This document shows, in pieces, positions 10,916 through 62,814 of a stretch of DNA of 64,000 nt (its first letter is position 1; each line of letters begins with the position of its first letter). Under the pieces are notes generated by a model. It did not search any database. It was not told the origin of the DNA and saw only the letters and a program-made list of their open reading frames with translations. The DNA is from Pseudotevenvirus miller (Duplodnaviria; Heunggongvirae; Uroviricota; Caudoviricetes; Straboviridae): IMG/VR virus record IMGVR_UViG_2706796139_000001, positions 50,895 to 114,894 of that record; one strand, 5' to 3'. A program made the position numbers and the translations under genes.

Positions 10916-11491
10916 ATGAAAAGAAAGAACACACTTGATAAATTTATGGTTACTCGTTTAAACATCAAGAACAGCAAGAACAAAGTTGTTACCTTGCCTA
11001 CTGGTGAAGAAGTCACGATCCCGCGTCTGGGTTATCGTCATTTCACCCAGATTAAAGCAATGAAAGACCCTATGCAATTACTTGATTATATCATCAACGA
11101 GATCAAACCGCGTGATTTGACAGCAGCAGAAACCGAATTTCTTCTGATTCATTTGCACTATCATAACGATGATAAAGCGATGGAAGCATTGAAAGAGATC
11201 GGGATTAACCTGGATGATATGAAAATCAGTGAGGCTAAGTATGAATACACTTTTGATAACATCAAATTGGTATTCAATAAACCGACCCTGATGCTGGATG
11301 AACTTTCATTACTGATTAAAGAAGCATACGACAACGGGAAACCGATCGAGCTTACGGACGAAAACCGGATTCAATTAATTAACAGCCTGTATCGTTATGA
11401 ATATGACGAGGTAAAACGTGGCGTACTCCAGGAAGTATATATTGTGCATGAGGGGAAAACCATCAAAGGGCTTAACATCATCGGTGAATGA
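10916..11491 (+). CDS. 28: baseplate hub distal subunit gp28-like
   Basis: 191 aa (T4 gp28 is 177 aa). Assigned from position between gp27-like and gp29-like genes. Confidence 0.4.
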   Translation: MKRKNTLDKFMVTRLNIKNSKNKVVTLPTGEEVTIPRLGYRHFTQIKAMKDPMQLLDYIINEIKPRDLTAAETEFLLIHLHYHNDDKAMEALKEIGINLDDMKISEAKYEYTFDNIKLVFNKPTLMLDELSLLIKEAYDNGKPIELTDENRIQLINSLYRYEYDEVKRGVLQEVYIVHEGKTIKGLNIIGE

Positions 11492-13221
11492 TAATGGCTA
11501 AAAATCCATATTACAGCGACGAACAACGTCGCAGGATGCAAAATCCACAACAGCCACAACCCACCGTTCGTAAGATTAACGCAACGTTGGATAAGGCTTC
11601 AATGAATGAATTGAAGGACATCAACAATAACACTCTTGAAACCGCGTTGAATACGCTGGATATCAAGGATGGTATGAAGTCCTTCGAAGACCGCTTTAAA
11701 GATAAATTTGCTGGGTTTAAAGAGCAATTCGAACAGGATCAGGAACCGCTTGCAGAACAGCTACCTGATTTTGTTGACCCCGCTCGACCATCATTAACCG
11801 ATAACAGCACAACCAGTGTTGATAACTCCGTTAGTGTATCAAACAACCCGTTTAGCAAGCTGGAAGAACATACAGGCACTATTGCAGAAGCAATAACCTC
11901 GTTCATTGCGCTGGCAAGCAAAAAGCCGGAACCCGCGCCAGAACCGGAACCCGTACCGGAAGAAGAACCAGAAGTTGATAAGAAGAAAAAGAAAATTCGG
12001 GATAAAGACAAAGACGAGAAGAAATTCAGTAAACGTGTGTTAGCATTGCTTGATTCAATCAAAAACAATACATCAGGTATACTGTCTCGCTTTATTGGTT
12101 ATTCTCTGGAAGCACTCGCCAAATTTGCTAAGTGGACATTGATTATCGGTAGTATCGTATTTGCGATCGACGTTCTGGCTAAGGTTGTTCAGAAATGGTT
12201 CCAGGACATTCTAAGCGAGGGTGAAGCCTCGAAAGAGTTGTTCGGTTCTTACTTCAAAAACATCAAAGCGCTGGCAGAGAAAATAAACGAAGGTTTGGAA
12301 AACTTCGATATGAGTAATCTGGGCGAATCGCTGAAAAATCTTTTCATGGAACCGTTTAAAGTTCTGGGTGATACGATTAAAACTGCTATCACTGAGGGTA
12401 TCGGTAATTTAATCTATGCTCTGGGTGAATATACTGGTTCAGAAACGATTACTGATGCAGGTCGCGGAATGAAAGTATCTGCGTTGCGCGACAAACAGAA
12501 ATACGGTTTGGAGATTGATCAGGATGACCTGATTATGCTCAAAGAGCAAGAAATCCAGGATCAGAAAGATAAAATCGTCGAAGCCCGTTCTAAATTGGTG
12601 GATCAGGTTAAAGCAACACAGGGCGCGTTCTCCTATGGATTCGGGCAGCAGACAGACGCACAAAAGGCGTTATCTAAACAACTCGAAGAAATGCGTAATC
12701 AAGTTGATCTCGAAGAACAGATTACGAAAGAAAAGGAAAAAGAACTACAGGCGTTGAAAGACAATCCTAATCTGCTTAAAGAACAGGTACAGAAGGAGAA
12801 CACCGAAAACCGCAAACGTGTTGATGATACCAAACAGATTGAAGCAGCACAAAAGCAAGCCAAACCAAAAGCAGAAAGTGAATTCGATCGTGGTGATGAA
12901 ATCCTGAATAAAGATGATATCACCGGAAAAGACAAAGAGTTGATGGAAAAGATTCTGGAATCTCTGGAAGAGAAGAACAATTCACAGAAACTCGATGAAG
13001 ATGATAAGGATCGTTATCGCTCGATGCTCGACCAGTGGCAAAACAAAATTGCGGTAGTTCCAGAAAGCAGCGCACCGATTGATAAACAACCCGAACCTGT
13101 AAGAGCACCAGTTGATGCGGTTGCTTCTAACAACGTCCAGGTAAACCAAAAAACAGTTAACAACATGGTACAACATTCAGTACAAAGAACTGAACGTAAG
13201 CCGTTGATTGCATTAGCATAA
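11488..13221 (+). CDS. 29: tail tube tape-measure / hub protein gp29-like
   Basis: 577 aa (T4 gp29 is 590 aa). Coiled-coil-rich with one TM-like helix (WTLIIGSIVFAIDVLAKVV) and a PEP/K-rich low-complexity stretch. Position is upstream of the gp48-like and gp54-like genes. Confidence 0.55.
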   Translation: MIMAKNPYYSDEQRRRMQNPQQPQPTVRKINATLDKASMNELKDINNNTLETALNTLDIKDGMKSFEDRFKDKFAGFKEQFEQDQEPLAEQLPDFVDPARPSLTDNSTTSVDNSVSVSNNPFSKLEEHTGTIAEAITSFIALASKKPEPAPEPEPVPEEEPEVDKKKKKIRDKDKDEKKFSKRVLALLDSIKNNTSGILSRFIGYSLEALAKFAKWTLIIGSIVFAIDVLAKVVQKWFQDILSEGEASKELFGSYFKNIKALAEKINEGLENFDMSNLGESLKNLFMEPFKVLGDTIKTAITEGIGNLIYALGEYTGSETITDAGRGMKVSALRDKQKYGLEIDQDDLIMLKEQEIQDQKDKIVEARSKLVDQVKATQGAFSYGFGQQTDAQKALSKQLEEMRNQVDLEEQITKEKEKELQALKDNPNLLKEQVQKENTENRKRVDDTKQIEAAQKQAKPKAESEFDRGDEILNKDDITGKDKELMEKILESLEEKNNSQKLDEDDKDRYRSMLDQWQNKIAVVPESSAPIDKQPEPVRAPVDAVASNNVQVNQKTVNNMVQHSVQRTERKPLIALA

Positions 13222-25931: not shown

Positions 25932-26633
25932 ATGCTAATATCAGCAGACAGTGTAGACGAACTCAATCAGAAGGTCAACCAACTATTAGATCAAGGTATG
26001 TATCTATGGGGTAGCCCTTTTGTTGTACCCAACAGCTATCACAACCAGACACGATTCTTCCAGCAGGTTTCAAACGTGAATCCATCAGGAGGCGGCGTTG
26101 ATGGTAAAAGCGCGTATCAGCTTTGGCTTGAACAACCAGGGAATGCAGGGAAACCAATAACAGATTTCTTTGCAGCGACTGCTGGCGTTCGTAAAAAATC
26201 AGAGGTGTTCTGGACGGGGTTAACTTTGGTCGTTCCAGAAGATACACCAACAAACTTAATCAACCTGCTTAAAACGATCGTACCAACAACGGGAACTCTT
26301 GAACCATTCTTTAAGATCACCGATAACAAATTGCATCCATTCAATGAAGATGCAACAGTTCAATTCAAGTTGAACCTGAAAGGTACTTTCACTGGTGCGG
26401 CAACAGCCCCACGAAGCGTAACACTGGATTTTGTCGGTACACAGGGAAATACCCTTGTATTGAACAGAAGCCAATCAGTAACAACCAGCACCCTTTCATT
26501 CGTCACTTTCTTTAGTGTCGATAAAAACGGTAATATGGCAACCAACGGAACCGCGATCAATATCTTCGCAAGCGGTAGTCCGTTCACATTGTCAGAAGTT
26601 TTACTGGTTGCAGAACAGCGCACCACTCAATAA
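25932..26633 (+). CDS. putative fiber-like or surface protein, 233 aa, Thr/Gly-rich
   Basis: The only + strand gene in the minus-strand region. Contains GKSAYQLWLEQPGNAG, a motif common in phage tail-fiber proteins. Preceded by cATAAATAta (late-promoter-like). Divergent from the MTase gene. Confidence 0.5.
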   Translation: MLISADSVDELNQKVNQLLDQGMYLWGSPFVVPNSYHNQTRFFQQVSNVNPSGGGVDGKSAYQLWLEQPGNAGKPITDFFAATAGVRKKSEVFWTGLTLVVPEDTPTNLINLLKTIVPTTGTLEPFFKITDNKLHPFNEDATVQFKLNLKGTFTGAATAPRSVTLDFVGTQGNTLVLNRSQSVTTSTLSFVTFFSVDKNGNMATNGTAINIFASGSPFTLSEVLLVAEQRTTQ

Positions 26634-54004: not shown

Positions 54005-54276
54005 TTATGATCTCCATTTTATAGATATTTATGTAGACCGTGAGCGAAGCGAACACACGAACGAAGTGAGTGTTTTTGACTCAACTACATAATTATATAT
54101 TTATATTTTATATATAGAGAAAAATGTAGTTTTTGGTATGGTTTTTAACCAGATGTAAACTATCCGTCTTCGCTTCGCTTGACGGAACTCGCTTCGCTCG
54201 TAACCTTGAATAATTTACTTGATCCTTTCAATAAATAGGTATATCATACCCATACTTTCAAAAGAGATTGAAAACA
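54005..54276. repeat. AT-rich divergent-promoter region with nested inverted repeats
   Basis: The outer repeat gagcgaagcgaa ... ttcgcttcgctc and the inner repeat aactacat ... atgtagtt flank the core aattatatatttatattttatatatagagaaaa. ATAAATA late-promoter-like boxes face both ways. Confidence 0.5.
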
Positions 54277-55067
54277 TGAAATCATTCAAAGAACTACTTT
54301 CTGAATCCACTCAGAACAAAAAATTTGCAAAGACCGTTGAACTGGTTGACCGTAATGGTGTTGCTCCATCAAAAGGCCAGATAGGTTTCCTTCATTTTGC
54401 ACACGGTGCTGATTACGATGTGTATGCGCCGGATTCTCATGACCTGGCTTACTTCGGTAAAGGCGTTGTTCGTCTGAAAGGGAAAACCACTGGTAAAACT
54501 CAGGCTGCATACGTTGACTGGGCTAAGGGTACGGTTTCCTTCTACAGCGGTGATCCTGCTGATGACCTGAAATTCGACAAACCGTTAAAATTCAAAGGTG
54601 CTTCCCTGTACAAAGAAGCCGAAGAAAATCTGGATCTGTACAATCAGTTAGCGGAAGATTTCGAAATCGAACTTCCGTTAGATGAATCACTGGTTAAGGG
54701 TGCTATTTACAAATTGCCAAGCAATGATATGCGCCTGATGTACACTGGGCGTTCAAAGACAAAAGCAACTGGTGAATACGCTGTCTTTACCGTTGTAGAT
54801 GCTTCTGGTAAGCCTCGTCTGGTTTCTGGTAAACGTTTTACCCAAGAATATAAAGGCGATATTCTGTCTAAGCTGGTTCTCGCTGAATCGGAAGACCTGA
54901 ATGAAGCGGCTAAAGACATTCGCGAAAAAGTTATTGCGGTGTTGGTGAAACGCGGGTTTAACGAAAAAGATGCAGAAAAGATGGTTGACAAAAACCTGAA
55001 AGATGCGATGAAAGTTAGACCTGGTGCGACCCCTGGCAAACTTGCAGAAATCGTGAGTACCCTGTAA
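54277..55067 (+). CDS. internal head protein (IP) with a T4-type capsid targeting sequence
   Basis: N-terminal MKSFKELLSE|STQ matches the T4 IP CTS MKTYQEFIAE, cleaved after LxE by the prohead protease. Lys-rich, 263 aa. Lies in the ipI-like neighbourhood (near genes 1, 2 and 3). AATAAATA lies upstream. Confidence 0.55.
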
Positions 55068-56490: not shown

Positions 56491-57045
56491 ATGTTATTCT
56501 CGTTCTTTCCACCAGTTGATTACAAAGGCACACCGACTACTGATATTTTTCGGGATTATCGTTTTTACTTTAATCGCGTTATCAGAAATTATAAGCCACG
56601 TACTTATCAACTGACCGGATCACTAAGACCCGAACAATTAGCTGAAACGCTATACGGAAACCAACAATATTATTGGGTTATCCTGATGCTCAATGATAAC
56701 TATGACCCGTTTTACGGATGGATTACAGATCAGGAAACCGCTTATCAATGCGCGGTGCAGCGTTATTCAAAAGTAGGTGGTGAACAGGTTCTTTATCATA
56801 TGGATGGGAAAAACAACCGATATTACAATCTGGTTGAAGATCCTAACAACCCTGGTCATTGGTATGACAAAGGTGATAAAGATATGCGGTATTTGCAATA
56901 TCAAGGAACATTAGTCCCTATTGATATTTATGAAGATGCAGTGTTGAAAAATGAATCAATGCGAACCATCAAAATTATTAACCCTTCGGATATTCAATCG
57001 TTTGTAAGCGATTATATCAAGGAAATGGAAAAGGCAAACACATGA
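56491..57045 (+). CDS. 53: baseplate wedge protein gp53
   Basis: N-terminal MLFSFFPPVDYKG matches T4 gp53 MLFTFFDPIEY. 184 aa, upstream of gp5. Confidence 0.7.
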   Translation: MLFSFFPPVDYKGTPTTDIFRDYRFYFNRVIRNYKPRTYQLTGSLRPEQLAETLYGNQQYYWVILMLNDNYDPFYGWITDQETAYQCAVQRYSKVGGEQVLYHMDGKNNRYYNLVEDPNNPGHWYDKGDKDMRYLQYQGTLVPIDIYEDAVLKNESMRTIKIINPSDIQSFVSDYIKEMEKANT

Positions 57046-58802
57046 GATACGGTGGAAACCCATATTCCCCTTACTTCGAAGGGGTGGTCGAAAACGTCGA
57101 TGATCCTCGTTATCTGGGGCGCGTACAGGTACGTGTGTTCGGTGAACATCCGGCGCAAAAACAAAAATCTGAAACTATCGGTATTCCTGTTGAAGAATTG
57201 CCGTGGATGATCCCTATCCAGGACATCACTAGCGCTGCTGTATCGGGTGTGGGTTTCTCTCCTACTGGTATTGTAAGGGGTTCATTCGTATTCGGCGTAT
57301 GGCGCGATAAATGGCATCAGGACGGGCTTATACTGGGAACCTTTGCAGGACAGTACACCGAAAAACCAGACACACAGAAAGGCTTCTGTGACCCTCTGGG
57401 TGAATATCCTCGCTATGTGGGTAATGATGTCAACGTTCTGGCTCGCGGTGGTTTAGAGGGTAAAGGTTCGTCAAGCGTTATCATTCGTAACACAAACAGT
57501 TCAATTGCAGTAAATCCAGACGATCGACCTCTTGACGATATACCGGAAGATAACCGACCGGATACTGGGGGCTTTACAATTGAAACAATGCTCAAACAGG
57601 ATGAAGGTATTCGCACACGCTGGTATATTGACAGTGAAGGATATCCGACTATCGGGATCGGACATTTGCTTATCATGGAGAAAACCCGTGATACGGCTAA
57701 GATTAACGCAGCAATCAGTAATGCGGTTGGTCGAGAAGTAACCAATGGAACAATAACAGCAGAAGAAGTATCAACTCTGTTTGCTCAGGATCTGGCGAAA
57801 GTTCGTCAGGGTATTTCGAATACACCAAGTGTTCGTGAAGTCTATGTTGATTTAAACCGTCCTCGTCAAATGGCTATTGAAAATATGTGCTTTCAGATGG
57901 GCGTTGGCGGTGTTGCCAAATTCCGTAATGCTCTTGCAGCAATGAAAGCGAAAGATTGGCAAACCGCGTATAATGAATTGCGTAATTCAACATGGGCTAA
58001 TCAAACTCCTGGGCGTTCTTCTCGTGTGTCTAAAATTGTTCTGGTGGGTAACTTAGAATCATATGGTGTTCAGGTTCCAGATCCAGAAGGGCGTAGTTTA
58101 AGTGCTGCATATAATCCGGTATTACTCGCAGCAAGCAACCCAGAAGATCCTTTTGTTCCTGGTGATACCCGCGTTATGTTTGAAGAACCAAAGTCTTCGT
58201 ATAATGCTGAATATCCTTACAACATGGTATTTGAATCACGTTCAGGCCATATTCAGGAATTCGACGATACGCCAGGCTATGAACGATATAACCGAGTACA
58301 TCCAGCAGGGTCATACGAAGAAATTCGTCCTGATGGAACCCGTGTTGTTAAAATCGTTGGTGATGATTATCTGATTGTTCAACAGGGAAGAAAGGTAAAC
58401 ATCAAAGGTAATTTGCAAGTAGTGATCGAAGGTGACGCGTTCATTTACAATATGGGTAACGTCCAACAAACTGTTGATGGTAATGTGACCGAGTTCGTGC
58501 GCGGGAACGTAAACCAGACTGTTGAGGGTGAATATGTGGGGCGCATTAAAGGCAACGCAGAATTAACTGTCGAAAAAGATGCTACCGTAAACGTTGATCA
58601 AAATTTAATGGCTAACGTGAAACAAAACGCAACTGTTAATGTCACCGAAGATGCACTCGTTACTGCGAAAAATGCAATGATGGATATAGAGCAAGATTTC
58701 GATGTTAACGCAGAAAATATCACGATGATTGCGCGACAAAATACACTAATCGATTCCGGTTCTCTGACTAAGATTACTGGCGGGACAGTCCAGGTAGGTT
58801 AA
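57042..58802 (+). CDS. 5: baseplate central hub / tail lysozyme gp5
   Basis: An N-terminal OB-like region, a T4 lysozyme-family domain (EGYPTIGIGHLL...NMCFQMGVGGVAKF...WANQTPGRSSRV) and a C-terminal VxVxxN beta-helix repeat. 586 aa. Confidence 0.9.
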   Translation: MRYGGNPYSPYFEGVVENVDDPRYLGRVQVRVFGEHPAQKQKSETIGIPVEELPWMIPIQDITSAAVSGVGFSPTGIVRGSFVFGVWRDKWHQDGLILGTFAGQYTEKPDTQKGFCDPLGEYPRYVGNDVNVLARGGLEGKGSSSVIIRNTNSSIAVNPDDRPLDDIPEDNRPDTGGFTIETMLKQDEGIRTRWYIDSEGYPTIGIGHLLIMEKTRDTAKINAAISNAVGREVTNGTITAEEVSTLFAQDLAKVRQGISNTPSVREVYVDLNRPRQMAIENMCFQMGVGGVAKFRNALAAMKAKDWQTAYNELRNSTWANQTPGRSSRVSKIVLVGNLESYGVQVPDPEGRSLSAAYNPVLLAASNPEDPFVPGDTRVMFEEPKSSYNAEYPYNMVFESRSGHIQEFDDTPGYERYNRVHPAGSYEEIRPDGTRVVKIVGDDYLIVQQGRKVNIKGNLQVVIEGDAFIYNMGNVQQTVDGNVTEFVRGNVNQTVEGEYVGRIKGNAELTVEKDATVNVDQNLMANVKQNATVNVTEDALVTAKNAMMDIEQDFDVNAENITMIARQNTLIDSGSLTKITGGTVQVG

Positions 58803-58804
58803 TA

Positions 58805-60877
58805 ATGATCATGGATTATGAATCCATCATTGATGGAATTATGCAAGATTTTCAGCATCCGTGTGATGCTGAAATACCTGCTGGATCGTACAGACGTATT
58901 ATCTGGCAGGGACATACAGAAGACTACCCCGCTGTCGGGGTAGAATGGGATACTGAAATAATTCCGATCGGGGCGCATCTTTACACACAATCCCCTTTCG
59001 GACAGAAAAGCGATCCGCTTCCGGTAGTTAACTCCCCTGGAACCGATCCAGGAACTGGGGAAGCAACTGGGATTCTGGTAGAAAAGATAGGTTATTATTT
59101 CGCCACACAACAGGAGATTGATGACTATATCACTTCTATCGGGGCAACAAAACTAACTGGTAATGATTGGTACGGCGCGGATCTGACAAAAGCAAACCTG
59201 TATAAAAACCCTGGGGAACTCGCGATGTATAAGGTCGAGAACTCTGGAGGTTATTTGCTTACTTCTGGCCCACGTTGCGATCAACGCATCAGACAGGCAT
59301 ATAATGAGGACACAGGCGCGTTTACAAGCATTGATTACTATTGGAATGGCAATCGTATTGCCTACATGAAACACGACGACACAGGGGCGCACAATTGCAA
59401 ATACGTGGGTATGGTGGTTAACACCAACGCAGATACAAGCATACCTCCGATCCCTCCGGCTATGCCGTCAATATACGGGGCTTTGCCTAGCGAAATCTCT
59501 ATGATGCGATCCGGTTTGGGTTGTGTTCCTGCAACAGTAGGATTTGCCTATACAAACATCAGCGATGCGATGCTTTCTGCATGGAACGAAACACGCAAAT
59601 CATTCAAACTGGTATTTGATATGTTATCCGGTATCACAAAAACGGGTTCCGGTGGTATATCGACGATGTATGATGGTTTGTGTATTGCTATGGAAGAAAT
59701 CACAGCGGGTGCGCTGGCGCTGTCACAACAGGCATGGCAAGCCGCGATAAAGGTATTCAAAGATATTATGTCTTCTGCGCTGAACATCGTAGGCGGTGCA
59801 TGGAACATGATAATGAGTTTTTTACCGACTGTTACAATTCTGGGTGTTTCTATAAACATCTATGATCTGATTTTCGGTGATAACTCCGTACAGACTTTGA
59901 AGGATTCGTTTCAGGCGATCATTGATGCGGGTACAGAAACCTATGAGAACGTCATAAACGCAATATACAGCGCTATAGGCAGCGCATACAATTATACCGT
60001 GGAATATGTCAAGGCTGGCGCTCGCGACCTTGTAGACGCTTGCAGCACGTTATTTGATTGGTGTATTACGATGTTCCAGAATGGTTGTGTTGCTCTGGTG
60101 GATCTGTACGGACGGATAATGCAAATTTGGGCTATGCCTCCAACGGTTCCAAACCCGTTATGGGCTGCTGTGTTGGCTATCCGTAACATTATGATGCAAA
60201 TTAAACCACTTGATGTAATTCTGGGAGGAAATTTCCCTGGGTTTACGGCAATGGATTTGTACCAAATGGCACAGGAGAAAGTAAAAGAGTTTATTGATCA
60301 GTCATATGCACAGATTCGTGTGTATTATGATCAGGTTAAGGATCTTTATAACACATTGACTTCCCAGACACAAGAAAGGGATTCGATCAAACGTAAGTTC
60401 GAACAGTACCTTAACTGGATGTGGGGCGCTGTTACCGAAGAAGCAACTGCTGCATATCAGGCTGCATTAGATGCGGCAAACGCTGCAATTGATCAGACAA
60501 AAGCAATGATTGCGAGTGTTAAAGCACAGATAGCCTCTCTGCAAGACGCAATGAAAGATACTTACAGCCTGGCGATGGAAGAACTTAAAAAACTTCCTCT
60601 GATGCAACAGATTAATGAATTCTTAGGGTTCTGCGGTATCGCTTTTGATGATCTGCTGAAAACTTATGATAACGCGGTTACTGGTGCAAAATCTTTATAT
60701 AAAAACTTTGTTGATAGTTCCCGTTCGTTCAAGGACACATGCAAAGTCATATATAACCAGATATGCACACTTGCTCTAAGTAAGGTGACTCAATACGTGA
60801 ATAAACTGTTGTCTCTAATCGGACTCGCGATCACTTTTGCATCAATCAATATTTGCGTTCCGATGATCCAACTATAA
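58805..60877 (+). CDS. large unknown protein (690 aa) between gp5 and gp6; Gly/Pro-rich N-terminal domain, Ala-rich helical and hydrophobic C-terminal region
   Basis: Lies in the slot where T4 has the small 5.1/5.3/5.4 (PAAR spike tip) genes. Hydrophobic segments TVTILGVSINIYDLIF and LIGLAITFASINICVPMIQL. No PAAR motif recognised. Confidence 0.6.
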   Translation: MIMDYESIIDGIMQDFQHPCDAEIPAGSYRRIIWQGHTEDYPAVGVEWDTEIIPIGAHLYTQSPFGQKSDPLPVVNSPGTDPGTGEATGILVEKIGYYFATQQEIDDYITSIGATKLTGNDWYGADLTKANLYKNPGELAMYKVENSGGYLLTSGPRCDQRIRQAYNEDTGAFTSIDYYWNGNRIAYMKHDDTGAHNCKYVGMVVNTNADTSIPPIPPAMPSIYGALPSEISMMRSGLGCVPATVGFAYTNISDAMLSAWNETRKSFKLVFDMLSGITKTGSGGISTMYDGLCIAMEEITAGALALSQQAWQAAIKVFKDIMSSALNIVGGAWNMIMSFLPTVTILGVSINIYDLIFGDNSVQTLKDSFQAIIDAGTETYENVINAIYSAIGSAYNYTVEYVKAGARDLVDACSTLFDWCITMFQNGCVALVDLYGRIMQIWAMPPTVPNPLWAAVLAIRNIMMQIKPLDVILGGNFPGFTAMDLYQMAQEKVKEFIDQSYAQIRVYYDQVKDLYNTLTSQTQERDSIKRKFEQYLNWMWGAVTEEATAAYQAALDAANAAIDQTKAMIASVKAQIASLQDAMKDTYSLAMEELKKLPLMQQINEFLGFCGIAFDDLLKTYDNAVTGAKSLYKNFVDSSRSFKDTCKVIYNQICTLALSKVTQYVNKLLSLIGLAITFASINICVPMIQL

Positions 60878-60900
60878 ATACCCGATAAAGAGGGGTAATA

Positions 60901-62814
60901 ATGGCTACCGTAAAGAAACAAATTAATCAGATCCCCGATATTTTTGTCGGGGCTACTTTTGATGAAATCAAATCCGATTTAATTAACTGGCTTCGAGGTC
61001 AGGAAGAATTCAAAGATTATGATTTCTCCGGCTCGCGTATGAACGTTCTTGTTGACCTGTTGTCTTACGCGACTTTGTATATTCAACAAATGGGTAACAG
61101 TGCTCTATTTGAATCGTTTATTCGAACTGCGGCGCTTCGTAGTTCTGTTGTGCAACATGCTCAGGATTTCGGATATATGCCGGATTCCCGAACCGCTGCA
61201 AACACTTCGATCATGATTACTGCAAAGAACCCACTAAACCCGACATCCATTCGTATTCCTCGCGGTACGAAGTTTATCGGTACGGTAAAAGATACAAACA
61301 GCTTCCCGTTCGTCGTGTCTGATGACGTGGTAATCGTCCGTGATACGAACAACAACTATGTGTCGATGCTGAACATCGTTCAAGGTCGTTTGGTTCGTAC
61401 AGAAGTAATCTATGATGGTTCTACCATTTTGATTCGTGATCCGAATATTGACCGTAGTCAGGTTCGTGTTACGATTAACGGCGCACAGTGGGACGATTGG
61501 ACAAACGAGAGTATCGTTAACGCAACGGGCGCAAGTACCATATTCTACATGCGCGAAACTGTAGACGGACACACTGAGGTTTATTTTGGTGAAGGTGAAA
61601 CAAGTCAACAGGTAGCGGGTGGTGCTCTTACTGCTGACTACATCGGGGGCTTAAAACCTGCAAACGGTTCTGTCGTTGTTATTGAATACATTTCAACCAA
61701 CGGCGAAGAAGCAAACGGTGCGGAAAACTTTGTTTACGTGGATACGTTGACAAACATCAGCATTACCAGTATTGTAGAGAACCCGACCAACTCCGCTGAT
61801 TACGTTGGCGCTGATGGTGGTGGTGAACCAGAAAACATTGAACGTATTCGAGAGTTAGCACCGATCATGCGCGAAACGCAGCGTCGTTGTGTTACTGCAT
61901 CGGATTATGAATCATTCCTGTCGCATCGCTTCGGTTCGGTGATTCAGGCGGTTCAGTGCTTTACTGATAGCGAAAAACCTGGATATGCGTTCATTGCGGT
62001 TAAACCGAAGTCAGGGTTGCGCCTAACCTCTGTACAGAAAGAGGATATGCAAAACTATCTGGCTAAGTACAACCTTGCGACGATCACACCGTCGATTCTC
62101 GACCCTAACTATCTGTATATCGTACAAAGTATCAAAGTAACGTATGATATCAGTAAGTTGATTGAGTCTGAGGAATGGCTTCGTGGTCAGGTTATCAATG
62201 AAATCGACAAATACTATACAGATAACGTTGAAATTTTCAACAAATCTTTCAGTAAATCGAAAATGTTGACTTATGTCGATAACGCTGATGTGTCAATCAT
62301 TGGTTCCTCTGCAACAATCAGTCTGTTGCGTGAACTGGACAACTATTACAGTGCGCCGATGTCTGGTATTCACTTCTTAAACCAGGTTGCATCAAGATCT
62401 GTTGTCTCCAACGGGTTCAAGTATACCAATGCGGATAATGATTCATATGATGTTCGATATGCGTCAACCGATATGGATACGACGACCGGACGTGCTAAGA
62501 TTGTAATTGGCCCGTTTAAGGATGGTGATATTTCAATAACTCCGTATGCTGGGGATGATTTTGATAAATACCCAGGGGTGACGGACAGAACGAAATATTA
62601 TGAGGTTGGTTATATTGAACACTATAGCGACTTCATCAGCTTCGATCTGGGTGTTCTTAACGTACCGTCAGAACGCTTTAGCGCTGCATATATCGAACTG
62701 ACTGCTAAACCGTTAGAGGAAACTATCTTTACTCGTGATGGTTCTCTGATTGTGTTTGAAAATGACTTACGTCCTCAGTATACCACTCTGACGATGAATC
62801 CAATCAGTCAATAA
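60901..62814 (+). CDS. 6: baseplate wedge protein gp6
   Basis: Near-collinear with T4 gp6 (IFVGATFDEIK..., CVTASDYESF..., FTRDGSLIVFENDLRPQY). 637 aa. Confidence 0.9.
   Translation: MATVKKQINQIPDIFVGATFDEIKSDLINWLRGQEEFKDYDFSGSRMNVLVDLLSYATLYIQQMGNSALFESFIRTAALRSSVVQHAQDFGYMPDSRTAANTSIMITAKNPLNPTSIRIPRGTKFIGTVKDTNSFPFVVSDDVVIVRDTNNNYVSMLNIVQGRLVRTEVIYDGSTILIRDPNIDRSQVRVTINGAQWDDWTNESIVNATGASTIFYMRETVDGHTEVYFGEGETSQQVAGGALTADYIGGLKPANGSVVVIEYISTNGEEANGAENFVYVDTLTNISITSIVENPTNSADYVGADGGGEPENIERIRELAPIMRETQRRCVTASDYESFLSHRFGSVIQAVQCFTDSEKPGYAFIAVKPKSGLRLTSVQKEDMQNYLAKYNLATITPSILDPNYLYIVQSIKVTYDISKLIESEEWLRGQVINEIDKYYTDNVEIFNKSFSKSKMLTYVDNADVSIIGSSATISLLRELDNYYSAPMSGIHFLNQVASRSVVSNGFKYTNADNDSYDVRYASTDMDTTTGRAKIVIGPFKDGDISITPYAGDDFDKYPGVTDRTKYYEVGYIEHYSDFISFDLGVLNVPSERFSAAYIELTAKPLEETIFTRDGSLIVFENDLRPQYTTLTMNPISQ

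Follow-up and report, generated by a model that had tools for sequence, protein, structure and literature searches.

A 690-residue protein encoded between gp5 and gp6 of Citrobacter phage CfP1 as a putative non-PAAR tip of the central spike

Introduction

What takes the place of the spike-tip genes in a T4-like phage whose gp5 and gp6 genes are separated by a single long ORF? Spike tips govern the breach of the outer membrane by contractile injection machines, and so far they have been PAAR cones or small fused apex domains. Four genes (5.1, segC, 5.3 and 5.4) lie between T4 genes 5 and 6, and in this slot gp5.4 is the PAAR-repeat spike tip (PDB 4KU0). We analyzed a window of 64,000 nucleotides from Citrobacter phage CfP1 (complete genome, 180,219 bp), in which the same slot is filled by an ORF of 690 codons, and we propose that its product is an alternative tip of the spike. 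The idea itself has been anticipated for the orthologous orf205w of phage RB43, which a 2025 preprint based on 17.7 Å cryo-EM proposed as a unique RB43 spike tip (PMC12407873); the exchange of the gene as a cassette with sharp borders is the finding of the present study.

Results

The gp5-gp6 interval

A first-pass annotation of the window had placed a single 690-aa ORF between gp5 and gp6, in the slot of the small T4 tip genes, and the ORF list and the Pfam matches of the neighbors bear this out. The features of the interval are as follows.

57042..58802, + strand: gp5, baseplate hub and tail lysozyme (central spike), putatively coupled in translation to the 690-aa ORF (Pfam, junction sequence)
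58572..58802, + strand: gp5 C-terminal beta-helix tip module, about the last 75-76 codons, ending ...DSGSLTKITGGTVQVG (gp5 alignment, DNA breakpoints)
58805..60877, + strand: 690-aa ORF, ortholog of RB43 orf205w (phrog_5296), putative non-PAAR central-spike tip protein (ORF list, phrog_5296 match, purifying selection, AlphaFold2)
60873..60880, + strand: TATAAATA, T4 late-promoter consensus overlapping the stop codon of the 690-aa ORF, 20 nt 5' of the gp6 ATG (pattern search and sequence)
60901..62814, + strand: gp6 baseplate wedge protein, bordering the tip cassette on the right (Pfam; resumption of homology in WG01 and SP18 versus JS98)

The gp5 product matched Gp5_OB (1.8e-63), Phage_lysozyme and Gp5_C, and gp6 matched five Gp6 domains with E-values down to 4e-42. 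The gp5 stop codon TAA is followed after 2 nt by the ATG of the 690-aa ORF, and 23 nt separate this ORF from gp6; another in-frame ATG is located at 58811, and its equivalent is the start in most homologs. The T4 late-promoter consensus had four matches in the whole window, which is not above chance, and therefore a late-promoter function of TATAAATA can only be presumed. When the CfP1 gene was compared with its RB43 ortholog, 182 synonymous and 24 non-synonymous codon differences were found, and 193 of the 224 nucleotide differences fell in third positions. To judge from this comparison, the ORF is a real coding sequence under purifying selection.

A phage family that adjoins gp5

The 690-aa protein matched phrog_5296 over nearly its whole length (E=0, 1297 bits; residues 3-689 aligned to positions 1-684 of the 685-position profile) and is 96.5% identical over 690 aa to RB43 orf205w (RB43ORF205w, YP_239181), which belongs to the same PHROG, lies at the same gp5-X-gp6 position and shows no substantive difference from the CfP1 copy. 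A full-length copy, that is, one with at least 80% of the query covered, was present in 214 of 217 matching phage records, and a search of 5.8 billion proteins yielded 54 clusters of 664-717 aa and one truncated member of 580 aa. No bacterial or non-phage homolog was found among 1.84 billion representative proteins. The gene order gp53-gp5-X-gp6, where X is the family member, was observed in RB43, EkoM5VN, SP18, PSTCR6 and WG01, and in the two most distant metagenomic members the family gene likewise lies directly 3' of gp5. The hosts of the more than 200 sequenced phages with a family gene are Klebsiella, Enterobacter, Cronobacter, Citrobacter, E. coli, Shigella and Proteus, and many of these phages are candidates for therapy. 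The first-pass annotation had taken a common gp5-adjacent baseplate component in relatives as evidence against its tip reading; the gene is indeed common, which lowers its novelty and leaves the tip reading uncontradicted.

No virion proteomics for the family was found in a literature search. The Jiaodavirus and Karamvirus virion MS sets come from genera in which gp5.4 and not the 690-aa gene was seen (Klebsiella TU02-type and Enterobacter CIP9 matches), even gp5 was undetected in the virion MS set of Morganella MP1, and the papers on KP15/KP27 and vB_EcRAM-01 contain no proteomics.

Absence of the T4-type tip genes

A separate PAAR gene elsewhere would have spoken against the tip reading, and none was found in the complete genome: a six-frame hmmsearch of all 180,219 bp with a gp5.4 profile gave a best E-value of 1.2 (a highly divergent PAAR might be missed by this profile, which was built on five gp5.4 proteins of the T4 type), and tblastn with gp5.4 gave 1.1 or worse. 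Homologs of gp5.1 and gp5.3 were likewise found nowhere in the CfP1 genome. Elsewhere gp5.4 is readily detected, in 1485 phage records.

The 690-aa protein itself also showed no PAAR character. The Pfam scan found no PAAR family in it, and hhalign against a 6-sequence gp5.4 profile gave a probability of 0.1%. Therefore the PAAR relationship that had been suggested for its N-terminal part was abandoned, and the protein is regarded as a PAAR analog and not as a PAAR-effector fusion. A relationship to T4 gp5.1 was tried as well and rejected (hhalign probability 0.09%). Whereas the 97 aa of T4 gp5.4 form a beta cone with PAAR motifs, the 690-aa protein has an alpha/beta domain and a helical domain; no sequence, profile or structural match between the two was found, and the small conical beta fold is absent.

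Exchange as a cassette with the gp5 tip

Phages WG01 and JS98, both of the genus Dhakavirus, share 92% nucleotide identity apart from one exceptional block, which extends from about gp5 codon 520 to 11 nt before gp6. Within this block, the last ~76 gp5 codons and a 690-aa-family gene of WG01 are replaced in JS98 by the last ~61 gp5 codons, 5.1 and 5.4. The breakpoints of SP18 versus JS98 were the same: SP18 gp5 was 88-100% identical to that of JS98 up to alignment column 500 and only 24-38% identical beyond it, and its last 23 columns were 69-81% identical to CfP1 and PSTCR6. Every examined gp5 upstream of a family member, including those of the metagenomic relatives, ends in ...SGSxxxxxxGGxVxVG, whereas the gp5 end paired with gp5.4 carries a different terminal motif, and in six lineages the C-terminal motif tracks the tip gene. 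Moreover, the last 50 aa of CfP1 gp5 matched 203 phage records, far below the number with gp5.4, and the counts of these 203 by host differed little from the counts for the 217 records with the 690-aa gene. On these alignments, the 690-aa gene is exchanged as a single cassette with the gp5 C-terminal tip. Such co-inheritance would also fit a dedicated assembly chaperone for the gp5 tip.

Protein architecture and predicted fold

AlphaFold2, supplied with a curated 38-sequence alignment, gave a model with pLDDT 88.3 and pTM 0.80, whereas the model of orf205w in the preprint was of low confidence (PMC12407873). The parts of the protein are as follows.

58805..59419, + strand: N-terminal alpha/beta domain, aa 1 to about 205, of no known fold
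59420..59512, + strand: Pro-rich linker, aa 206-236, with P214 and P217 invariant (alignment; models without regular secondary structure there)
59513..59539, + strand: beta-strand aa 237-245 with C240 (motif GCxP), predicted partner of the C-terminal strand (AlphaFold2, cysteine covariation)
59687..60817, + strand: helical domain, aa 295-671, with long helices 295-329, 405-442, 482-536 and 545-582 (AlphaFold2 secondary structure)
60248..60550, + strand: two long successive helices (482-536, 545-582), aa 482-582, the fastest-evolving part (AlphaFold2, conservation)
60845..60871, + strand: C-terminal beta-strand aa 681-689 with C684 (motif CxP), after the end of a hydrophobic helix (AlphaFold2, Kyte-Doolittle 2.03, covariation)

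Invariant residues of the N-terminal domain include W122-Y-G-A-D126, E145-N146, G148, C20 and C198. The loss of C240 and C684 was always joint (4 of 57 sequences). In the model, the helix pair at aa 482-582 is read as an antiparallel coiled-coil hairpin; family conservation is 0.44-0.49 there and 0.6-0.74 elsewhere, and 13 of the 24 amino-acid differences between CfP1 and RB43 fall in aa 509-578.

The Gly/Pro-rich N-terminus, Ala-rich helical C-terminal region and hydrophobic segments of the first-pass annotation proved roughly right by composition and Kyte-Doolittle values. Gly makes up 10% and Pro 6.8% of residues 1-220; Pro-rich loops are located near 60-90 and 205-236, and residues 481-600 contain 15.8% Ala. 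Two hydrophobic stretches are present, aa 328-358 (Kyte-Doolittle 1.63, peak aa 339-357) and aa 663-690 (2.03, peak aa 668-686). In the family consensus both have conserved Lys, Asp and Pro inside them, and AlphaFold2 places them as short strands or helix ends folded into the soluble domain; on these two grounds the transmembrane reading of both stretches was downgraded.

No match outside the family was obtained with Foldseek against PDB and BFVD. A sequence search of solved structures returned only noise (E of 0.36 or worse), NCBIfam gave only coiled-coil noise, and no toxin, enzyme or pore-forming domain was found in the family by Pfam or NCBIfam.

Similarity to tape-measure proteins

Up to 29 of 38 family members matched tape-measure PHROGs, with E-values from 1e-14 at best to 1e-3, and the family profile weakly retrieved true tape-measure proteins (TMPs) in return; hhalign against one true TMP gave a probability of 90% over aa 479-671. 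The matched region consists of generic apolipoprotein-like amphipathic helices, and the similarity may be compositional. The resemblance to TMPs of the PhageMin_Tail type would lie in long amphipathic helices, and the weak reciprocal similarity concerns their helical region C-terminal to PF10145; unlike these TMPs, the 690-aa protein lies outside the tube-gene cluster, has a globular N-terminal domain and lacks PhageMin_Tail (PF10145 matched in 0 of 38 family members). The real tape-measure protein is encoded elsewhere in the window.

11488..13221, + strand: homolog of gp29 (577 aa), the actual tape-measure and channel protein of the phage (gp28-gp48 slot, BLASTP)

This protein matched T4 gp29 (BLASTP 5e-7) in the region around its hydrophobic segment, aa 216-234 (Kyte-Doolittle 2.03). 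T4 gp29 is the channel former, and its helical bundle shields a transmembrane helix. Paralogy of the 690-aa protein with CfP1 gp29 or T4 gp29 was rejected (hhalign 1.2% and 0.25%, respectively). The ejected inner-membrane conduit that the first-pass annotation offered as an alternative is unlikely, since CfP1 encodes a gp29 homolog of its own, hydrophobic segment included, and gp29 forms the channel in T4.

Discussion

The reading that we favor, with a probability of roughly 0.65, is that the 690-aa protein caps the central cell-puncturing spike as an alternative tip without PAAR. The present data establish where the gene lies, that PAAR is absent, that the gene is inherited with the gp5 tip, how the protein is predicted to fold and that its cysteines covary; its binding to gp5, the number of copies, the orientation and a possible membrane activity are inferred. 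The spike-tip density of RB43 virions is larger than gp5.4 and was tentatively assigned to orf205w, in a 17.7 Å map with C6 symmetry imposed that resolves no protein identity (PMC12407873). At 77 kDa, or 230 kDa as a trimer, the protein would make a very large tip, which counts against the reading. As for the first-pass proposal of a spike tip with an effector or channel extension, the tip is well supported by the absence of a PAAR gene, the adjacency to gp5, the cassette swap and the RB43 density, while the PAAR kinship did not hold and the extension is unproven: a toxin or enzyme domain is absent, the hydrophobic segments are charged and folded in, and the TMP similarity is confined to amphipathic helices.

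Several other roles have to be weighed against that of a cap. The weak but reciprocal TMP similarity, the apolipoprotein-like helices, the two hydrophobic stretches and the gp29 mode of T4, in which a bundle shields a transmembrane helix, are all consistent with a membrane-active cargo borne on the tip like the PAAR-linked effectors of the T6SS, whose helical domain would unfold in the periplasm and insert into a membrane, aiding DNA entry or perturbing the envelope. We regard this as rather unlikely: conserved Lys, Asp and Pro interrupt the hydrophobic stretches, which the model places inside the domain, no toxin, enzyme or pore-forming domain was recognized, the phage retains its own, unrelated T4-type gp29, and amphipathic repeats may resemble each other by composition. 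If such a cargo did exist, the protein could be a phage counterpart of T6SS tip cargo, a structurally new cap whose helical domain becomes a lipid-inserting or channel-assisting device, and T4-like phages might interchange a minimal PAAR 'drill bit' with 77-kDa membrane-active tip cassettes to fit different envelopes; this picture is a speculative one, with the odds clearly against it. The same tape-measure PHROG matches, and one GenBank record (H118) that labels a homolog 'tail length tape measure', would also suit a second tape-measure-like protein in the tail tube, ejected as an inner-membrane conduit. This is barely credible for a family that is linked to the gp5 tip and not to the tube genes, lacks the PhageMin_Tail domain and has hhalign probabilities of about 1% or less against gp29, while a gp29 homolog already fills the canonical gp28-gp48 slot; the confident globular N-terminal domain (~205 aa) and compact fold (pTM 0.80) are, moreover, unlike an extended ruler.

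Co-inheritance with the gp5 module is, as noted above, also expected of a non-virion assembly factor or chaperone that folds or caps the variant gp5 beta-helix end and is missing from the mature particle, and the literature search found no proteomic detection of the protein. A length of 690 aa and a fast-evolving exposed hairpin are, however, atypical of chaperones. Co-expression and co-purification of orf205w with a gp5 beta-helix fragment, that of T4, failed, which counts against the cap and agrees with a chaperone (PMC12407873). A chaperone would also leave the phage without any tip protein, PAAR being absent, yet the RB43 tip density exceeds gp5.4, and we judge this role improbable. The enlarged RB43 tip might instead be another protein, such as a tail-needle knob, with the 690-aa protein serving an unrelated late function, and one candidate is encoded in the window.

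25932-26633: Sf6-type tail-needle-knob protein, 233 aa (PF16532 match)

The trimeric form of Sf6-type knobs would match the 3-fold symmetry of a spike. The PF16532 match is strong (7e-35), a late-promoter-like CATAAATA lies about 25 nt 5' of the knob start, and the RB43 cryo-EM was unable to separate the knob from the 690-aa protein (PMC12407873). However, full-length knob homologs were found in only about 43 phage records versus 217 for the 690-aa gene, and therefore most of these phages must have a tip other than the knob, which also has no gp5 linkage and lies outside the swapped cassette. The knob was rejected as a general tip for its much narrower distribution, and this explanation is very improbable.

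Returning to the cap, we propose the following course of events. The 690-aa protein would be translated from the late transcript that also encodes gp5, coupled to gp5 translation, and would bind the blunt C-terminal end of the variant gp5 beta-helix, where ...SGSxxxxxxGGxVxVG replaces the ...IDGSRIDIG of T4. The binding part would most likely be a conserved head, made of the N-terminal alpha/beta domain, a conserved helical core and the strand pair aa 237-245 / 681-689, which the covarying C240 and C684 may clasp. The fast-evolving hairpin at aa 482-582, about 80 Å long, would jut from the head as an exposed extremity. On sheath contraction, the protein would be pushed into the outer membrane ahead of all other virion parts and would then exit with gp5-gp27 into the periplasm, leaving gp29 as the inner-membrane conduit as in T4. 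The sharp borders of the cassette (gp5 tip and cap gene) make the tip question directly testable between WG01 and JS98, and they delimit a cognate gp5 fragment for structural studies, in place of the T4 gp5 fragment that failed.

Comparison with known systems

'Evolved' PAAR proteins (Tse6 and Rhs-PAAR, for example) carry extra mass at the T6SS spike tip, and the 690-aa protein shares with these PAAR-effector fusions the idea of a large extra mass at the tip of a contractile-injection spike; it differs from them in having no PAAR, toxin or Rhs domain. The apex domains of P2 gpV and phi92 gp138 likewise sharpen or cap a spike without PAAR, and they are small, are fused to the spike protein and hold an HxH iron site (PMC12407873), whereas the present protein is a separate one of 77 kDa with two conserved Cys pairs. 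By analogy, its conserved cysteines might have a stabilizing role similar to that of the apex metal site. With no fold relatives detected, the 690-aa family would be a third, much larger tip solution beside the PAAR cones and the small fused apex domains.

Locus of the 690-aa gene

The sequence belongs to Citrobacter phage vB_CfrM_CfP1 (KX245890.1, genus Pseudotevenvirus), and CfP1 genome coordinates equal window coordinates plus 50894. The first-pass annotation placed one 690-aa ORF in the slot between gp5 and gp6, and this was confirmed by the ORF list, the Pfam-type domains of the neighbours and the codon substitution pattern. In CfP1, gp53 lies upstream of gp5.

57042-58802: gp5, central spike/tail lysozyme, upstream of the 690-aa ORF (Gp5_OB 1.8e-63, Phage_lysozyme, Gp5_C)
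58805-60877, + strand: 690-aa ORF, ATG start (ORF list)
60873-60880, + strand: TATAAATA, exact T4 late-promoter consensus, spanning the stop of the 690-aa ORF
60901-62814: gp6, baseplate wedge, downstream of the 690-aa ORF

The ATG lies 2 nt after the gp5 stop codon, with a second in-frame ATG at 58811; T4 has 5.1, segC, 5.3 and 5.4 (PAAR) between genes 5 and 6. The protein shares 96.5% identity with RB43ORF205w and falls in phrog_5296, labelled 'unknown function'. Codon changes relative to RB43 (182 synonymous, 24 non-synonymous) indicate strong purifying selection on the + frame. The distance from TATAAATA to the gp6 start is 20 nt, so that a late promoter may serve gp6 separately, as judged from a motif whose four occurrences in the window are not above chance.

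Between gp3 and gp2 lies another ORF (54219-55067, + strand, 282 aa; annotated start 54276, giving 263 aa) alongside a bidirectional terminator and without a Pfam match, which is called 'hypothetical' in CfP1 and RB43 and 'tail completion protein' in Enterobacter phage EkoM5VN. The CfP1 GenBank record also gives 'rIIb protein' to three successive genes (locus L009 1-5398, CfP1 genome 1-5398), 'strutural lysin' to gp5 and 'DNA ligase' to a uvsW.1-sized gene, and its annotation is not to be trusted.

Exchange of the gp5 tip together with the downstream gene

The Dhakavirus phages WG01 and JS98 are 92% identical in DNA on either side of the tip locus. Their identity ends at about gp5 nt 1560 (codon ~520) and returns 11 nt before gene 6, enclosing two different blocks:

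WG01, 2,283 bp: last ~76 gp5 codons and an orf205w-type gene
JS98, 1,005 bp: last ~61 gp5 codons, 5.1 and 5.4

Both breakpoints were the same when SP18 (Gaprivervirus) was compared with JS98, the gp5 proteins being 88-100% identical up to alignment column 500 and 24-38% thereafter, while the last 23 columns of SP18 gp5 were 69% identical to CfP1 gp5 and 81% to PSTCR6 gp5. Indeed, every gp5 examined 5' of a family member (CfP1, RB43, SP18, PSTCR6 and both metagenomic contigs) ends in ...SGSxxxxxxGGxVxVG, and those of T4, JS98 and RB49 end in ...DGSRIDxG. The last 50 aa of CfP1 gp5 matched 203 phage records, far fewer than the 1485 with gp5.4, and their host counts were nearly equal to those of the 690-aa gene (Klebsiella 113/114, Escherichia 27/27, Enterobacter 20/20). 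Such co-inheritance of the extreme gp5 tip and the downstream gene is expected where two parts must fit each other, and no other comparative evidence speaks as strongly for the 690-aa protein as a gp5-tip partner. Dhakavirus contains both tip types (5.1 and 5.4 in JS98, the orf205w-type cassette in WG01, and a matching gp5 end in Bp7, H213); therefore, the exchange is evolutionarily recent.

The family was found in 217 phage records, carried by Pseudotevenvirus, KP27-type Klebsiella phages, Dhakavirus, Gaprivervirus and phages of Pectobacterium, Providencia and Proteus, and accounted for only 54 clusters in a set of 5.8 billion proteins. Against 1.84 billion representatives its profile retrieved 19 proteins at E <=1e-3 (8 full-length members, 5 fragments and 6 weak matches to the coiled-coil region), and this search placed the N-terminal domain in no other protein context. 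The gene stood directly 3' of gp5 in 7/7 cases (RB43, EkoM5VN, SP18, PSTCR6, WG01 and the two most distant metagenomic members). In one of these two metagenomic members the gp5 5' of the orf205w-like gene has 389 aa, with OB domain and beta-helix and without the lysozyme domain (L021 219-1388); another carries a gp25-like gene between the orf205w-like gene and gp6 (L020 2542-2967).

Absence of a PAAR gene

T4 gp5.4 homologs extend to Campylobacter and jumbo phages (1485 phage records). A separate PAAR gene elsewhere, named in the first-pass annotation as evidence against a spike-tip role, was not found in the whole CfP1 genome (180,219 bp, the window and four loci joined through identical overlaps) searched in all six frames. 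Neither a gp5.4 profile of five diverse proteins (T4, RB49, Aeromonas, Acinetobacter, Vibrio; best E 1.2) nor tblastn for gp5.4 (best E 1.1) gave a significant match in it, and T4 and RB49 5.1 and T4 5.3 gave none below E 0.5. The 690-aa protein is itself neither PAAR nor gp5.1, since hhalign of its family against gp5.4 and gp5.1 profiles gave a probability of 0.1% and fold searches returned no relatives outside the family.

Predicted structure

AlphaFold2 modelled the whole chain from a 38-sequence alignment with pLDDT 88.3 and pTM 0.80:

aa 1 to about 205: alpha/beta domain
aa 206-236: Pro-rich linker
aa 237-245: strand
between aa 295 and 671: long helices, the longest 482-536 and 545-582
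aa 681-689: C-terminal strand

Foldseek with this model found nothing in PDB below E 0.1 and only family members in BFVD, so on present evidence the model represents a new fold. C20 and C198 were kept in 56/56 sequences covering both positions; the N-terminally truncated P0050 is without C20. C240 and C684 were both present in 53 sequences, both absent in four (P0017, P0048, P0055, P0056) and never found singly, in agreement with the two predicted strands; this points to a disulfide, or a metal site common to both residues, that would pin the hydrophobic C-terminus to the head. Conservation was lowest at aa 511-600 (0.44-0.49), and 13 of the 24 amino-acid differences between CfP1 and RB43 fell in aa 509-578 and 0 in 294-508. 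Evolution is thus fastest in the helix pair 482-582, which was read from the model as a coiled-coil hairpin roughly 80 Å long, and we infer that this pair forms the exposed extremity.

Role of the protein

We consider the 690-aa protein to be a virion spike-tip component with a probability of about 65%. A membrane-active cargo is unlikely: the family consensus has conserved Lys, Asp and Pro within both hydrophobic stretches of the protein (Kyte-Doolittle 1.63 and 2.03), AlphaFold2 builds these stretches into the domain, and Pfam and NCBIfam searches showed no toxin or enzyme domain. Tape-measure PHROGs matched many of 38 family members (phrog_167 29/38, phrog_1272 26/38; best 1e-14), the family profile weakly retrieved true PhageMin_Tail tape measures, and hhalign to a true tape-measure protein reached 90% probability over aa 479-671. 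The region matched there consists of apolipoprotein-like amphipathic helices C-terminal to the PF10145 domain, and the similarity may be convergent composition. Membrane activity may therefore exist but finds no support in these results, and the effector or channel role is unproven.

These matches could also speak for a second tape measure, which we regard as the most improbable reading. CfP1's real tape measure is the gp29 homolog, a single 577-aa ORF between gp28 and gp48 (11488-13221, + strand) that aligns with T4 gp29 around its own hydrophobic segment; the 690-aa protein is related to neither, and kinship with gp29 was ruled out. In the RB43 record the gp29 homolog (L007 5895-7626) is given as two ORFs, ORF103w (457 aa) and ORF104w (105 aa), pointing to a frameshift in RB43 or an error in its sequence.

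A chaperone that helps the variant gp5 tip assemble is somewhat less probable than a cargo. The literature searched yielded no virion proteomics for the family. It is quite improbable that some different protein forms the RB43 tip; the Sf6-type knob protein would be a candidate, but its narrow distribution (about 43 records versus 217 for the 690-aa gene) speaks against it.

25932-26633, + strand: knob protein, 233 aa, Sf6-type tail-needle-knob domain (PF16532, 7e-35) and N-terminal DUF1737

Its gene stands amid minus-strand early genes with the late-promoter-like CATAAATA about 25 nt upstream, and the full-length homologs come from the RB43 group, Dhakavirus AnYang and Edwardsiella PEi26.

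As a spike-tip component, the 690-aa protein would be a non-PAAR cap whose conserved head (N-domain, helical core and Cys-clasped strand pair) binds the variant gp5 platform through a presumed surface, with the variable hairpin projecting from the head in a putative orientation and copy number. Contraction would drive it into the outer membrane, it would be released with gp5-gp27 into the periplasm, and the conduit would afterwards be made by gp29; T4 gp29 makes the inner-membrane conduit (10.64898/2026.03.06.709160).

Comparison with the T4 and RB43 spikes

The earlier proposal of a PAAR-like spike tip is supported as to the tip and fails as to PAAR. New here are the sharply bounded cassette of gp5 tip and candidate cap gene, the motif at the gp5 end, the lack of PAAR throughout the CfP1 genome, the confident model without fold relatives and the C240/C684 covariation. 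The place of the protein among spike-tip proteins was already flagged, as a tentative assignment, in the preprint 'The spike tip protein of bacteriophage T4' (PMC12407873): gene 5.4 is missing from RB43, RB16 and Lw1, the 5.1-5.4 locus is taken by orf205w (residues 1-220 mixed alpha/beta, the remainder helical), co-expression of orf205w with a T4 gp5 fragment failed, and the RB43 spike has a larger tip in a 17.7 Å, C6-symmetrised reconstruction, 'possibly encoded by' orf205w.
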